From Candidatus Thorarchaeota archaeon (GTDB taxonomy: Archaea; Asgardarchaeota; Thorarchaeia; Thorarchaeales; Thorarchaeaceae), in contig JAWOEX010000031.1 of the NCBI GenBank assembly GCA_046482545.1, forward strand, positions 1 through 33,560: DNA of 33,560 bases, read 5' to 3'. Of the stretch, positions 8,716 through 20,460 are shown piece after piece (position 1 is the stretch's first letter; the number at the start of each line of letters is the position of its first letter). The notes below the pieces were generated by a model. The model searched no databases, was not told where the DNA came from, and saw nothing but the letters and a program-made list of their open reading frames with translations. A program made the translations under genes and the position numbers.

Positions 8716-9099
8716 CTACGGCTCATCATCTGGAACTATGAACCTCATGTGTCGTCCATCTCTCATTTTCACCAATCTGCCCTCATCTACCAGTGTGTTC
8801 AGAACTTCACTAGTGCGCGAGCGCGACCTCCCCCATTTCTTGGCAAGTTGCTGAGCTGTCAACCCTCTCTCAGTATCCTCTAATAACCCAATCAATCGTT
8901 CCCAGCTCAGGTCTCCTTCTATGACGCTTTGCTGGTTGGCAAAAACGTTGTACTGGCCCTCTCGCCCTTTCTGTTCTGCTGGAAGATTCCCGTCTACTTT
9001 CGACTTGAGCTCACCAATAGTCTGCTCAAGATTCGAGACAGTCTGATTCAGCTGTTCTATTTTCTTTCTGAGCCTTTTCATCTCTTCTTCACTATTCAT
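8716..9099 (-). CDS. Coiled-coil plus C-terminal winged-HTH putative DNA-binding protein
   Basis: N-terminal heptads (MKRLRKKIEQLNQTVSNLEQTIGELKSKV); C-terminal GLTAQQLAKKWGRSRSRTSEVLNTLVDEGRLVKMRDGR wHTH; ATG at 9099 follows GGAGG. Confidence 0.8.
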   Translation of the reverse strand: MNSEEEMKRLRKKIEQLNQTVSNLEQTIGELKSKVDGNLPAEQKGREGQYNVFANQQSVIEGDLSWERLIGLLEDTERGLTAQQLAKKWGRSRSRTSEVLNTLVDEGRLVKMRDGRHMRFIVPDDEP

Positions 9100-9119
9100 G
9101 AATTTCCCTCCTACTACCT

Positions 9120-9476
9120 CTAGCATTGGTCTCTGAATTCTATGTAGTCCCTTCCTTTCCTTTTCTTTTCGAAGGCCCGTTTTGGTTCTTCAGGATCGAA
9201 ATTGATTTCATCATTGTATTGTTCTGCTTTGCCTTCGTCTGTTTCCAAGGCAGTCTTCCCTGGGACTAGCGTGTTACCAATCTCGGTTATTATGATATCA
9301 GCTACTTTTGGAAGGTGGTTGGTATTCTTTTTTCTTGCTTCGTCTTGCTCATTGGACTGTTCACGTGTGATAGGTATGATGTCAAGTTCGTATTCCTCTT
9401 CCCCCGTCTGCATAATATTCGCCAGAATGCTTTTGGGATTTCGGCTTGATAGCTTGCTCTTGTGCTCATAGCTCAT
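9120..9476 (-). CDS. Hypothetical charged, probably partly disordered protein
   Basis: ORF co-oriented between trmI and the HTH gene; E/K-rich; start uncertain (9476 or 9506). Confidence 0.55.
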   Translation of the reverse strand: MSYEHKSKLSSRNPKSILANIMQTGEEEYELDIIPITREQSNEQDEARKKNTNHLPKVADIIITEIGNTLVPGKTALETDEGKAEQYNDEINFDPEEPKRAFEKKRKGRDYIEFRDQC

Positions 9477-14876: not shown

Positions 14877-16592
14877 TTATACCATGAAGTTGACAAACAG
14901 AGTCGAGCCATTTTTCAGTTCAGGAACGTAGGCTCGTTCGTATGGCCCGAACAAATCGGTGAAACCTGAGTTAATAACCCACTCTATCCACGACCATGTA
15001 GCCTCCTGTCCAATTTTTCCCTTGGTGTACTGACCATATACCCAGCTGAGATATCGTTCCATTTCAAGGCGGGTTATCTGAAGCTGTTGGTTGTTCTTGC
15101 CGCTTGCTTTTTTTCGTTCCTTTTCCAACTGCTCAATGCCTTGGTTGATTTTCTTATGAGAACTATGCAAAAGGGACCTGAAATCTTGTGCTGCGCTGTT
15201 CATTTCAGAATAGTCTTCTGATTGACGGGCCCTCGTAATGCGCCCGATGGTATTGAACATGTCACCTCCATGGAGTGTAGGTTTGTCCTTTTGCTTCAGT
15301 GTTCTTGACAGACCCTCAGCCCATGGCGTATTGAAGTAGACACGAGGATACTTCAGGAATGACGGGAATGGAACTCCAAGTTCTTCTGCTACCGGGATGA
15401 CCTGCGCGTAGTAGGCAGTCTCACCTCCCCCTCCAATGTGAACTACGATTGGTAAAATCGTATCAATGACGAACTGCCTTGAATCAACTCTGGGTGATAT
15501 ATTCTCAGCAATTTCGCTCAAGTCTGGTTTCTCTGCATCAAATTCCAGTTTAACAGGCCTTCCACAAGATGGACATCGTCCTGTGAGAATTGCTCTTGCG
15601 CCTTCTTGCCTGTAATGCATTTCAACTCTGCTAGAATGACATCCCTTTTCCTGACACTCGTAGAAAAAGGGGACATAATCAGGCGACCTTTCGCCTGCTC
15701 CCGTATCGAATCCATTTTCCTCGATAAGTCTTGTTGCACGTGTCTGGGCTTCAACAAACTTCTTCCGGTTTTGAGCAGCGAGAAGATACTCAAAACCCTC
15801 AGTCATGAGCTTTCTTATCTCAGGATTGGATGAGGGAAGCACAGGCAGTCCGAGATCACCTTCTACGTTGAGTAGTCTTCCAATGATTCTCTGGGCCCAT
15901 TCTCCAAGAGTTTCCGAGTTGTAGAATGACCATCGAGTAACTGCAAGGGCCGCTTCAAGGCGTTCTTCCAACAACTTGGTGCCTGTACCTGATAGGGGTT
16001 TGAACAAATCATTGTAGTTCTTGCGGATACTATTCTCAACTTCGGAATACCATGTGGAATCAGGGAGCGGCAATATACTTACCGGAGAATGTTCATATCC
16101 TTCGGGTACTGGCAGGCTGATTAGATTGCCTGATTGTCCCATAAGAGGGGTCCTAATATTGACAAGCTCGGCTTGAACCTCATCATAATCGCCTACAAAG
16201 AAGAACGCCGACAGGTTGTTTTCTTTCGAGAAGCTTGATACTATCTTCGCTGAGGCCGCCTTGTTCAGGATGTAACATGGCCCTCCCATCACCACACTTT
16301 GATGAGCAGCTTCAACTGCTCCATTTGATAGATTGTCAATGCTATCTTCGACAGCGGGTGTCAGGCAACCTAATCTTGAATTCGTTTCAAGAAGCACGGA
16401 CTTGAGGGAGTCAAGTCGTTTCTCTGGGACAAAGTTGGTTTCCTGATATGCCTCAAGAATTCTAGGTGCCCGTTGAGCAGCTTCACCCATTGTCTGCGGT
16501 GGATTGCCATACAAAAAATCCGCCAAGTCTTTTTTCTCTGATTTCCATATGTAGTCGTAATAGATTTTAGTCGCAATTGGTGTCAACGCCAC
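14877..16592 (-). CDS. bshC: Bacillithiol biosynthesis cysteine-adding enzyme BshC homolog
   Basis: AAHQSVVMGGPCYILNKAASA (cf. TGQQ..L..GP.Y...KA), GDYDE (cf. EDHD), ISPRVDSR (cf. SPNV..R), ILPIVVHIGGGGETAYYAQ (cf. LP...IGGPGE.AY.AQ); 9 bp downstream of bshA with GGAGTG SD. Confidence 0.88.
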   Translation of the reverse strand: MALTPIATKIYYDYIWKSEKKDLADFLYGNPPQTMGEAAQRAPRILEAYQETNFVPEKRLDSLKSVLLETNSRLGCLTPAVEDSIDNLSNGAVEAAHQSVVMGGPCYILNKAASAKIVSSFSKENNLSAFFFVGDYDEVQAELVNIRTPLMGQSGNLISLPVPEGYEHSPVSILPLPDSTWYSEVENSIRKNYNDLFKPLSGTGTKLLEERLEAALAVTRWSFYNSETLGEWAQRIIGRLLNVEGDLGLPVLPSSNPEIRKLMTEGFEYLLAAQNRKKFVEAQTRATRLIEENGFDTGAGERSPDYVPFFYECQEKGCHSSRVEMHYRQEGARAILTGRCPSCGRPVKLEFDAEKPDLSEIAENISPRVDSRQFVIDTILPIVVHIGGGGETAYYAQVIPVAEELGVPFPSFLKYPRVYFNTPWAEGLSRTLKQKDKPTLHGGDMFNTIGRITRARQSEDYSEMNSAAQDFRSLLHSSHKKINQGIEQLEKERKKASGKNNQQLQITRLEMERYLSWVYGQYTKGKIGQEATWSWIEWVINSGFTDLFGPYERAYVPELKNGSTLFVNFMV

Positions 16593-16601
16593 TACACTCC
16601 A

Positions 16602-17762
16602 CTACTCTAGTATCGATTCGAGCATGTTTTCATAAATTGGAACGATTCTTTCTGCAGAGAAATCCTCTTCTACCCGCTTTCGGGCAGCCTTGCCCATTTT
16701 TTCACGAAGGCTCCTATCAGCTACCAGTTGAATAATAGTATTGGCATATTCTTCCTGTTCGAATCCCTCTGTCACCATTCCATCTTTCCCCTTTCTAACG
16801 AGTTCAGGAATACCTCCTGCAGGAGTTGTTACTACCGGTACTCCACTGGACATGGCCTCAAGGAGAACAAGTGGCATTCCTTCCATGGTTGAATTCTGTA
16901 GAAAGATATCTGCGGCCGACATTATCTGGTTCATATTACTTCTGATTCCCAAAAGATGGACGTTGTGGCAGAGATCAAGTTCCTCAATTTTCCTTTCGAC
17001 CTCAGTCCGGGCTGGTCCATCGCCCACTATTACGAGTCTAGTGTTAGGATGATGATCGACCACCTTCCGCATTATTTCAATGAGCTGAGGAACCCGCTTG
17101 ACTTTCCTGAAGTTTGAGGCATGTAGTAAAACCAACTCGTCCGGTTTTATCTCCGTTGCGTCCTCTTCGCGTCTAACCGAAACACAACCGCTCTTGACCA
17201 CTAGCCTGAAACCCTCGCTAGGAGCGAATCGGTCAGTATCTATGAAATTGGGGATTACTCTGATGTCTCGTTCTATGCCAAGCCCCTCATGTGCTTCTCT
17301 TCTCAAGAAATCCGAGACAGAATTCACAGCGTTAGCATTCTCTACTGTGTGCTCAACTACAGGACGATATGCAGGATCTTGACCCAATGTGTGCACATCT
17401 GAACCGTGAAGGGTCACTGCATATGGAATATCAATAATTTCGCGGGCCATGTATGCAGCCATAGCATGGGGAATTGCATAATGGCAATGTATCAACTCGA
17501 GGTTCGAATCTCTTGCCACTTTCACTATTTTGGATGTTAAGGCCATTGCATAAGGTGGACCGATAGCTTCGAAGAGAGGATAATCAAATCTATCAACCAG
17601 ATCTACGTAGACGCTTCCTGCTTCTTCCCACATTAGGGCGAACGGCTCTTCATATGTGATGAAATGCACTTCGTGCCCTCTATCGGCTAGATGCTGTCCT
17701 AGCCGAGTTCCAAGATAGCCCGAACCACCGACGGTCGGATAAAGACAGACTCCAATTCTCAT
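16602..17762 (-). CDS. bshA: N-acetyl-alpha-D-glucosaminyl L-malate synthase BshA (GT4 glycosyltransferase)
   Basis: MRIG..YPTVGGSG, RGHEVHFITY, YPLF..PPY, HCHYAIPHA, TLHGSD, NFID, HASNFRKVKRV, LVLLEAM, GGIPE: BshA-specific signatures. Confidence 0.92.
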   Translation of the reverse strand: MRIGVCLYPTVGGSGYLGTRLGQHLADRGHEVHFITYEEPFALMWEEAGSVYVDLVDRFDYPLFEAIGPPYAMALTSKIVKVARDSNLELIHCHYAIPHAMAAYMAREIIDIPYAVTLHGSDVHTLGQDPAYRPVVEHTVENANAVNSVSDFLRREAHEGLGIERDIRVIPNFIDTDRFAPSEGFRLVVKSGCVSVRREEDATEIKPDELVLLHASNFRKVKRVPQLIEIMRKVVDHHPNTRLVIVGDGPARTEVERKIEELDLCHNVHLLGIRSNMNQIMSAADIFLQNSTMEGMPLVLLEAMSSGVPVVTTPAGGIPELVRKGKDGMVTEGFEQEEYANTIIQLVADRSLREKMGKAARKRVEEDFSAERIVPIYENMLESILE

Positions 17763-17866
17763 CAACATTGACCCAAGGTACAAACCTCTGAATGACCTTT
17801 AAGCAAACTGGTTTAGCATTCAAGCTCTGGCAAACCTTGATTAACAAGTTAAAGGAATTCTAATCT

Positions 17867-18535
17867 ATGACCCAACATTCTGACCCTTCAATTCTTGCCG
17901 TCGTTGCGCATCCGGATGACGAGTGCTTGGGAGCAGGAGGAACTATCTCTGTTCATACTCGGCGAGGATTTCCGGTTGATGTCCTATGCATGACTGGAAC
18001 CGAAGAGCGCAATGAGGAACTCAAATCGGCATGTTCCACGCTAGGGGTTCGACATGTCCTGACGAACATACGAGATGATTTTGACATCAAGCTTTCTATG
18101 AAGGATGAAGTTGCTGATGCCATACTTAGGACGAAGCCGACAATTATCATCACGCACTCCGAACGGGATTACAATGATACTCATGTCACATGCTCACAAG
18201 TAGTTGATCAGGCTGCTGAATGGGCTTCGCACAAGACCATATTCGATAACGCCCACAGAGTTAGGCGAATTCTCAATATGGAAATAAATTCGCTGATTGC
18301 AATCCCTAATCTGGTAATGGATATCTCTGAGGGCTATGAATCCGCAATGAAGGCATTACGGCAGCATGAATCACAAATCGGGAAGGCGGAAGGATATTAC
18401 GAGAAACTCTACGACTACAGAACAAAGCTACGTGGTCTTCAAGGTGGATGTAGTAGAGGCGAAGCATTCACAGTCAAGAGTCCGATACAGGCAGGCCCCT
18501 TCTACCCCGAAAATAGCGTTAAGACCCTGCTCTGA
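17867..18535 (+). CDS. bshB: PIG-L/LmbE-family deacetylase, probable BshB (GlcNAc-malate deacetylase)
   Basis: AHPDDE..G.GGT zinc motif, R..E...A...LG, P.IIITH, DIS, AL..H.SQ, R..L.G...G...EAF; divergent from bshA. Confidence 0.8.
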   Translation: MTQHSDPSILAVVAHPDDECLGAGGTISVHTRRGFPVDVLCMTGTEERNEELKSACSTLGVRHVLTNIRDDFDIKLSMKDEVADAILRTKPTIIITHSERDYNDTHVTCSQVVDQAAEWASHKTIFDNAHRVRRILNMEINSLIAIPNLVMDISEGYESAMKALRQHESQIGKAEGYYEKLYDYRTKLRGLQGGCSRGEAFTVKSPIQAGPFYPENSVKTLL

Positions 18536-18559: not shown

Positions 18560-18994
18560 TCATTCACCCTGATCTATTTTCTTTCTTCTTGCAGCAAGCA
18601 ATCCTTTGAGTTCACCCATTAGTCCCCCTCGTCCGCCACCTGGAGGCCCTGACGAAGGTTCAGTTTCTGCTGAGGCCGTTGCAGGTTCTGCTTCAGCAGG
18701 TGCCCCTGCTGGAGGTGCGGAGGGAGCTGGTGCTTCTGCATCGTCTCCAGAGGACGGGCTTGCTACACCGCCGCTAGAAATCCTGCTATCCATACTATTA
18801 ACTTTGGATTCAAGATTTCCGATTCTCTTTTCCATTCCGTCAATAGTTACCTGAAGCTCTCCTATAGCATCCACTAGCTTTTTCGTTATTGCATTAACTA
18901 CTTCTCCCAACCCTCTTAGCTTCTCTTCAGTGGGGTCTTTCAGCGCCCATTCAAATTCCTCGGCTATGAAATCATCGTCGTTTTCTTCTGCCAT
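18560..18994 (-). CDS. Coiled-coil / Pro-Ala-rich protein with C-terminal Ena/VASP FAB- or WH2-like motif
   Basis: Heptad coiled coil, then low-complexity APAPSAPPAGAPA linker, then PPGGGRGGLMGELKGLLAARRKKID; co-oriented downstream of glmM; start 18994 or 19012. Confidence 0.75.
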   Translation of the reverse strand: MAEENDDDFIAEEFEWALKDPTEEKLRGLGEVVNAITKKLVDAIGELQVTIDGMEKRIGNLESKVNSMDSRISSGGVASPSSGDDAEAPAPSAPPAGAPAEAEPATASAETEPSSGPPGGGRGGLMGELKGLLAARRKKIDQGE

Positions 18995-19083
18995 AAGCAG
19001 CGGCCCCTTCATCCAGTTTGATGTAAAGTGTTTGTGCTATAAAGCTTCTTTGCATAATGGTTTTCACATAGGTCACCATTAAT

Positions 19084-20460
19084 CTATGTGTCCTCTACAG
19101 TTTCACTTACAATATCTTTGGCTTTGGCAAGCAGGCTGTTGACTCTATCTTCTGAGAACGCTTCACAGGTCACTCTGATTACCGGTTCTGTCCCTGAGGG
19201 CCTTACTAAAATCCAGCCATCATCAAGGAACAAACCAATACCATCCACCTTCACTATCTCCCGTATTTTGCCTAGATTCTGGGGGAGAAGGTCTTGTAAC
19301 TTCTTCATGACTCCTGCTTTCATGCTATTATCACAATGCACTTTCCCTTTTGTAAGTGGATACTCTGGAATCTCAGATATGAGCTCAGCAAAGCTTTGCT
19401 TCTTCTCTGCGATTAATTCTAGAATCATACAGGATGCCAAAAACGGTTCTGGAGCAAGGTGAAACCATGGAAGTATGTAGACTCCACAAGCCTCCCCTCC
19501 AATGGCAGCTCTCGCCTCTTTGATTTTCAGGGCGACCTCAATATCGCCTACGGGGGTTCTAATCGTGTTTCCTCCTGCTTTTTCTACTGTTTCATCAAGA
19601 ACTAAGGAGCTATCGACGGTTGTCACGACAGTTTTGTTCTCAGACCGCTTGATCATTTCTCTTGCGAGTAATGCAATCACCCTGTCGCCGCGGATAAACT
19701 CTCCTTTACTTGTCACAAAGGTAACCCTGTCAGCATCCCCATCATGAGCAATCCCGATGTCAGCTTGAGCCTCTTTGGTGATGTTTATCAAATCACTGAG
19801 GTTCTCTTCTTCAGGTTCTGATGGCCTTCCTGGGAAATGGCCGTCGAGTTGCGCGTTGAGAGTGATTACCTTACATCCTAGCTTTCTCAGAAGATATGGT
19901 GTCATTACACAGGCAGCACCATTTCCAGGGTCTACTGCTATCTTGAATCTCTGCTCGGCGATGGCTTTTGAGTTGACTTGGTCCAAGATAGCCTCAATAT
20001 GTGTTCTAACATCAACATCTGATACTGATTCTGTCCCCAGCCGATCCCACGAGGCAATCTGAAACTCTCCTGTCTCATAGATTGCTTCGAGCTCGCGCTC
20101 TTCTTCCTTGGTATAGCCCATACTATCTGCACGCCAGAATTTGATTCCAGTATACTCTGGCGGATTGTGGGAAGCTGTTACCATAACTCCAGTATCAAAG
20201 CCTCTTACCATAGTATTGTATGCCAAAGTAGGAGTAGGAATAATACCTGCTCTTACAACATTGACACCTGTCGACATCACTCCTGAGGAGAATGCATCAG
20301 CAATCATGCTTCCCGTCGTTCTAGCATCTCTTGCTAGTAATATTGTTCCTTTATCCAGATATGTTCCAAGTGCCTTACCAAGTTCTAATGCCATGATCGG
20401 GTCAAATTCGGAACCGTACACCTTCCGAACGCCTGTTGTCCCAAAGAGATTACCAGTCAT
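19084..20460 (-). CDS. glmM: Phosphoglucosamine mutase / phosphohexomutase
   Basis: LFGTTGVR, TASHNP (phospho-Ser), DGDADR metal loop, GGE, RPSGTEP; substrate (GlcN vs Man/Glc) not resolvable from motifs. Confidence 0.9.
   Translation of the reverse strand: MTGNLFGTTGVRKVYGSEFDPIMALELGKALGTYLDKGTILLARDARTTGSMIADAFSSGVMSTGVNVVRAGIIPTPTLAYNTMVRGFDTGVMVTASHNPPEYTGIKFWRADSMGYTKEEERELEAIYETGEFQIASWDRLGTESVSDVDVRTHIEAILDQVNSKAIAEQRFKIAVDPGNGAACVMTPYLLRKLGCKVITLNAQLDGHFPGRPSEPEEENLSDLINITKEAQADIGIAHDGDADRVTFVTSKGEFIRGDRVIALLAREMIKRSENKTVVTTVDSSLVLDETVEKAGGNTIRTPVGDIEVALKIKEARAAIGGEACGVYILPWFHLAPEPFLASCMILELIAEKKQSFAELISEIPEYPLTKGKVHCDNSMKAGVMKKLQDLLPQNLGKIREIVKVDGIGLFLDDGWILVRPSGTEPVIRVTCEAFSEDRVNSLLAKAKDIVSETVEDT

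Follow-up and report, generated by a model that had tools for sequence, protein, structure and literature searches.

A conserved coiled-coil protein of Asgard archaea with a proline-rich arm and a tail helix resembling the Ena/VASP FAB segment, a candidate actin-assembly factor

Asgard archaea crawl and make actin-filled protrusions. The order of parts in actin regulators of the WAVE/WASH type is WHD-PRD-V-C-A. These nucleation-promoting factors come with the trimeric coils of BRK1, CCDC53 and HSBP1 (bioRxiv 10.64898/2026.09.18.752629), and human VASP has a GAB at residues 223 to 239, a FAB at residues 259 to 278 and a tetramerising coil at residues 343 to 380 (PMC10340426). Arcadin-2 of Pyrobaculum attaches to an actin homolog by inserting its C-terminal helix into a hydrophobic groove (PMC5173319). 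Work on Asgard actin regulators names profilins and gelsolins only and notes that no formin-, VASP- or nucleator-type factor is known (PMC9433394, PMC13716822); filament nucleation machineries able to recruit profilin-actin are described as still missing from these organisms (PMC9433394).

We analysed a window of 33,560 nucleotides (contig JAWOEX010000031.1 of a Candidatus Thorarchaeota genome) in which an initial annotation had proposed a VASP-like actin regulator on the minus strand at 18560-19012. The open reading frame was present as claimed. The upstream ATG at 19012 is an improbable start, and the second Met, at 18994, is most likely the real one, because homologs align from this residue and a database protein with 97% identity has a length of 144 aa. 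The features of the protein were as follows.

18560..18994, minus strand: coding sequence of 144 aa plus stop (P0001), delimited by homolog alignment
18875..18958, minus strand: conserved head, residues 13-40, with a short helix, a KDP turn and the beginning of a long helix; near-invariant in Thorarchaeota and recognisable across Asgard archaea
18779..18901, minus strand: heptad coiled coil, residues 32-72, with I/V/L/M at the a/d positions
18809..18826, minus strand: trimer-type R-h-x-x-h-E motif, RIGNLE, residues 57-62 (motif defined in PMC3653964)
18623..18778, minus strand: disordered Pro/Ala/Ser/Gly linker, residues 73-124, with 10 Pro and runs of PP only
18578..18622, minus strand: conserved tail helix, residues 125-139, LMGELKGLLAARRKK, resembling the VASP FAB

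The layout drawn in the initial annotation was confirmed. The N-terminal coiled coil occupied residues 32 to 72 (18901-18779), the tail segment that had been singled out corresponded exactly to residues 117 to 141 (18646-18572), and the remark that proline runs do not exceed PP was correct for this protein. The linker, which had been called disordered, was of low confidence at residues 73 to 124 in an AlphaFold2 model built from a 71-sequence alignment (pTM, 0.33), in which helices were placed at residues 6 to 18, 21 to 74 and 125 to 142. A head motif that this annotation had passed over (residues 13 to 40) was conserved to the same degree as the tail. Since mean column conservation among 121 Thor homologs was 0.91 for residues 125 to 139 and 0.87 for residues 13 to 44, against 0.45 in the distal coil and 0.39 in the linker, the conserved features of the protein exceed chance. 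A tail that varied among homologs had been named beforehand as grounds for refuting the proposal, and the tail proved to be conserved. The longest proline run among these 121 homologs was P in 58, PP in 7, PPP in 52 and PPPP in 3.

A profile of the Thor protein matched 82 of the 85 genomes of its own family at E values no higher than 0.01, a few of them only weakly, and 117 of the 135 genomes of the largest Loki-type family. (The names Thor, Hel and Heimdall are those printed by our sources; other lineage names were inferred from grouping.) With broader profiles, full-length members were detected in almost every other sampled Asgard family, mostly as a single copy per genome, and a model of the tail matched 26 of 30 Asgard genomes at E values of up to 0.001, many of these genomes being in the training set of the model. 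Homologs in actin-less archaea were a second ground for refutation named beforehand; 251 Thermoproteota genomes yielded neither a full-length member nor a tail match, and the partial matches found there were to the coil only, with no arm or tail. Further archaeal phyla were covered by global protein searches, in which the remaining non-Asgard matches were generic coiled-coil repeats only. Some homologs carried Deferrimicrobium, Bathyarchaeia or Zixibacteria labels; these were treated as mislabelled bins because one such sequence sits in a genome (G124) that is placed in the Asgard phylum. Matches in the ESM Atlas were to unnamed archaeal clusters only.

Expression was assessed for the homolog of L. 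ossiferum (genome G138, whose protein masses match the published ones) in the supplement of bioRxiv 10.1101/2025.11.30.690169. This homolog was inferred to be GNAMCCOK_02219 from the protein masses given there: the upstream gene product, at 24.01 kDa, has the mass of GNAMCCOK_02218, and the direction of numbering is set by three more anchors. Each of the 16 proteome columns contained it, with a mean log2 value of 18.47, a level similar to that of gelsolin GelX (18.64), and with profilin Pro2 at 17.38. No description of an Asgard family with this coil, proline arm and tail was found in the published literature, most subscription journals being outside the scope of the search. The protein belongs to a real, conserved and expressed family that is apparently undescribed.

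The resemblance of the tail to VASP was examined with the GAB and FAB of the human protein, taken from PMC10340426, against a background of 826,158 windows from 2,672 proteins serving as a proteome proxy of the same genome. The FAB ranked the Thor tail first of all windows, with a score of 52 versus 35 for the next, and 10 of 20 residues were identical. When the poly-Gly was removed and only the 14-residue core was used, the scores were 38 and 37. A profile made from non-Thor tails only gave the FAB core 18 bits, higher than every window of the other proteins in the genome and higher than all 20,000 shuffles. Outside Thor, the tail consensus, SxRxxLMxELKxLFxKR, was less FAB-like, with a median core score of 26.5 versus 35. 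The FAB likeness is suggestive rather than proof because the comparison was picked after the motif had been seen, and its p-values overstate the case because of this post hoc choice and because basic amphipathic helices are common.

Profile tests gave a different picture. The proposed FAB-like tail had its first rank among the windows but no match to a VASP profile or to the PDB, and the proposed likeness to WH2 was not upheld, as there was no match to PF02205 and no LKKT after the tail helix. Searches with this Pfam model detected nothing in the Thor protein, the tails, the repeats described below or the genomes; Pfam likewise gave no match to any actin-binding family, VASP and WASP included. 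PDB sequence searches with profiles of the whole protein, head, tail and repeats returned generic coiled coils only and no relevant chain. No EVH1 domain was detected in Pfam scans, and the AlphaFold2 model consisted of helices only. Membership of the Ena/VASP, WH2 and WASP families was rejected on the basis of these tests.

Relatives of the Thor protein were found to elaborate the arm and the tail. The putative profilin-recruiting proline region has only PP runs in the Thor copy; Loki-type members had long PPPPPG arms and, in some cases, an acidic end. Although the longest proline runs are those of Loki members, binding of polyproline is reportedly absent from Loki profilins (PMC8410842). In Hod-type members, the C-terminal helix was followed by Trp and acidic residues. 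The Heimdallarchaeia-type families f8, f9 and f13 were longer: the head and a Pro-rich arm were followed by between one and three helix-LxK[AV] motifs (LKKV, LKKA or LTKV) and then by the FAB-like helix, an acidic stretch and a second related helix, so that the LxK[AV] motifs lie upstream of the FAB-like helix in the GAB-then-FAB order of VASP. The GAB itself did not match the Thor protein (rank 439), and GAB similarity was weak in most f8 forms. With a joint GAB-then-FAB score, four long forms were equalled or exceeded by just 1 to 4 of the 2,672 background proteins, whereas five other long forms were unremarkable, with 16 to 182 background proteins scoring as high.

The head coil of the family probably forms a trimer, judging from its motif and its structural matches. 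R-hxxhE is mostly found in parallel trimers (PMC3653964), and it was present in 24 of 53 heads compared to 1.5 in shuffles, a control that is lenient because shuffling destroys the heptads. The best PDB matches of the head were largely trimeric coiled coils. One f8 head scored above the Pfam cut-off for CCDC53 (25.5 versus 24.6 bits); CCDC53 was absent from the top 25 families for the 53 heads, and nothing exceeded the cut-off in 83 genomes. Homology of the head to CCDC53 was dropped as unproven, the match being limited to one f8 member and not family-wide. Two tandem paralogs, which could form mixed oligomers, were observed in Hel-type genomes (L039, L046, L116 and L338).

Compared to known systems, the VASP-like architecture proposed in the initial annotation was supported in part. 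An oligomerising coil, a Pro-rich region and a FAB-matching helix, preceded in Heimdallarchaeia-type forms by a GAB-like motif, recall the EVH2 region of Ena/VASP. However, the VASP coil is C-terminal and tetrameric whereas that of the Thor protein is N-terminal and trimer-like, so that the domain order is reversed; the Thor copy lacks an EVH1, a GAB and polyproline; and no Ena/VASP or WH2 profile, Pfam family or PDB entry provides a link. The family order of coil, Pro-rich region, WH2-like motif (where present), basic helix and acidic stretch also parallels the WHD-PRD-V-C-A order, and the Trp and acidic end of Hod-type tails and the f8 head above the CCDC53 cut-off are further points of likeness to the WASP family. 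Against this, the Thor copy has the C-like helix alone, with no Trp of an A region, a V-like part occurs only in f8, f9 and f13, no WH2 profile matched and the Thor genome lacks an Arp2/3 pair, since its actin-family gene is single. Arcadin-2 (PDB 5LY3; PMC5173319) is similarly a small archaeal protein with a C-terminal helix, but it is a depolymeriser encoded beside crenactin, and neither the 251 Thermoproteota genomes nor the PDB yielded a sequence link to it. Asgard profilins and gelsolins (PMC9433394, PMC8410842, PMC13716822) share the phylum-wide distribution of the family but have no fold in common with it, and the WH2-like motif of gelsolin is an internal LKxV linker.

We tentatively favor, at somewhat less than even confidence, a reading in which the family forms oligomers, probably trimers, that serve as actin-binding adaptors in the manner of VASP or WASP without belonging to either family. 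In its favor are a tail that stays constant as the linker diverges, the spread of the family across Asgard archaea and not the 251 Thermoproteota genomes, the FAB ranking, the proline runs and LxK[AV] motifs of relatives, the trimer-type heads and the gelsolin-like level of the L. ossiferum homolog. The head would form a parallel trimer and display three flexible arms. The end helix would bind actin as the VASP FAB does, with its hydrophobic face on actin and its basic end on the acidic surface of the filament, and the trimer would thereby tether or bundle filaments. In forms with polyproline and helix-LxK[AV] motifs, the arm could capture profilin-actin or G-actin and feed it to the filament end, as a VASP/WASP-like elongator or nucleator; the Thor copy, having neither, would be a plain tether or bundler. 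The invariant head may bind a localising partner, and fusions to Arf/Rag-like GTPases would place the module under GTPase control.

The genome that contains the window (98.9% complete) encodes a single actin-family gene, a two-domain gelsolin and a profilin-like gene (G000 C21:63367-63864). The last of these was found with a Lokiarchaeum profilin query, and a Pfam profilin search had no matches anywhere, this gene included. Because there is only one actin-family gene, a tether or bundler fits the Thor copy better than an activator of Arp2/3. The family is a good but unproven candidate for the missing archaeal actin-assembly factor, and a soluble, nearly universal Asgard protein of 15 kDa with this layout opens the gap in actin regulators to standard actin assays. 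A more far-reaching version, which we consider unlikely, is that the family represents the ancestral actin-assembly factor of Asgard archaea, a homotrimer with the layout coil-polyproline-(WH2)-C-helix, and the source of VASP EVH2, of the V-C-A of WASP/WAVE/WASH and perhaps of the BRK1/CCDC53 trimer coil, with the Heimdallarchaeia forms preserving an intermediate.

The most serious competitor to the actin-binding adaptor arises from the occurrence of the tail in unrelated proteins. In Loki/Hel-type genomes, Arf/Rag-like GTPase domains were followed in the same protein by the whole module, and tyrosine recombinases of f10 (L390:85-1686) and f9 (L392:124-1749) carried a Pro-rich arm and the family tail helix, the former with an additional LxKAP motif. 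An internal copy of arm plus helix was present in a 697-aa protein with a predicted C-terminal membrane segment (L182:817-2907 in genome G143), encoded directly after a two-domain gelsolin gene. The GTPase fusions and the position of this internal copy count toward the actin reading, and the recombinase counts against it. Conversely, the head protein of f10 comprised only head and arm, at ~120 aa (L410:3403-3768, L417:5398-5757 and L415:6164-6526). Because the tail is attached to GTPases, a recombinase and the internal copy, and is missing from the f10 head protein, it is a portable docking motif rather than part of a fold. On the Xer-like recombinase it could be a tether to a cytoskeletal or division structure. 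The GTPases ending in coil, Pro arm and tail helix were located at L142:737-2080, L143:1723-3051, L144:1702-3132, L162:1306-2454 and L403:738-2030; fusions of the head to gelsolin were not seen among the gelsolins of five genomes.

Such portability would be expected of a localisation tag for an Asgard-specific hub, such as a small-GTPase/longin system, a membrane protein or an anionic lipid, with the FAB likeness being a convergence of basic amphipathic helices. The weaker FAB likeness of non-Thor tails and the lack of a profile match to known actin binders are in keeping with this generic docking adaptor, as are the Lokiactin coimmunoprecipitation data (bioRxiv 10.1101/2025.11.30.690169). The L. 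ossiferum homolog was absent from the rows listed there, which include gelsolins and profilins and span all ratios above log2 -1.06, 841 rows ranking below; it was consequently not enriched. This result speaks against actin as a stable partner, although weak or end-restricted binding could have been missed. An Arf of 38.1 kDa that coprecipitated with Lokiactin was apparently a GTPase without the family tail. A generic docking adaptor does not account, however, for the several families in which polyproline, GAB-like motif and FAB-like helix follow one another as in VASP/WASP, nor for the FAB scoring above all background windows even with non-Thor tails, and we judge it somewhat improbable. Even with a partner other than actin, the family would point to a conserved docking interaction that is specific to Asgard archaea and common to GTPases and a recombinase.

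Gene neighborhoods provided a further alternative to the actin-binding adaptor. In the window, the gene adjoins bshC-, bshA- and bshB-like genes of a bacillithiol-type pathway (14877-18535) and a phosphohexomutase gene (19084-20460). The order of the bsh cluster and phosphohexomutase was the same in another Thor genome, and these neighbors have no relation to the cytoskeleton. Around the stand-alone gene, 45 flanks contained no gene for actin, gelsolin or profilin, which counts against the actin reading, and no conserved gene context was seen across Asgard classes. In 3 of about 16 lineages, ESCRT clusters were present 1 to 6 kb away: in f10, the gene preceded, at a distance of two genes, a co-oriented UEV-Vps28-Vps22/36 run that had Vps4/Vps25 on its far side or, in another genome, beside two Snf7 genes and Vps4; in an Odin-type genome, it was 5.4 kb from two Snf7 genes and Vps4; and in f4, it was 4.1 kb from Vps4/Vps25. 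Tail-less f10 homologs (L410, L417 and L415) were observed beside genes for TFIIE-alpha and ESCRT-I/II/III/Vps4. This proximity, which counts against the actin reading, is more frequent than we would expect by chance but is possibly the relic of an old gene neighborhood.

The three linkages could alternatively reflect an ESCRT-associated adaptor, in which the end helix would be a MIM1-like dock for the MIT domain of Vps4 or another protein and the coil and Pro arm would resemble those of ESCRT accessory factors. The ELKxL core of the tail recurs in one Asgard Snf7 tail, which ends LEDELKSL, and the Hod-type arms contain LPPLP repeats, which we take to fit the MIM2 pattern. On the family tail profile, however, four Asgard ESCRT-III tails scored only +2 to -13 bits, whereas the VASP FAB reached 19.5 and the lowest-scoring family member 17, and a Snf7 search of the genome matched two other genes, the family gene having no Snf7 core. 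Moreover, the f10 copies closest to ESCRT genes have no tail, metabolic genes intervene in f4 and in the Odin-type genome, no linkage is seen in about 13 other lineages, among them Thor, and the LxK[AV] repeats are left unexplained. An ESCRT adaptor is accordingly rated as quite unlikely. Least probable by far is a structural tail that folds back on the head or joins oligomers in self-association or autoinhibition: the joint conservation of head and tail in Thor and a conceivable pairing of the acidic N terminus with the basic tail would fit it, but head, coil and tail were not docked on one another in AlphaFold2 models (pTM, 0.33 and 0.20), and the tail occurs without the head (recombinase and internal copy in G143) and the head without the tail (f10).

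Two other coiled-coil proteins were encountered during these searches. A separate family of ~190 aa (L183:1114-1683, L185:1465-2097, L187:1096-1668, L053 and L063) has a similar N-terminal helix and coil followed by a folded C-terminal domain, and in Loki-type genomes it adjoins a small GTPase with an N-terminal extension. The window itself encodes, on the minus strand at 8716-9126, a 136-aa protein that starts with a coiled coil and has a helix-turn-helix-like C-terminal part; its match to the family profile was weak and confined to the coil.
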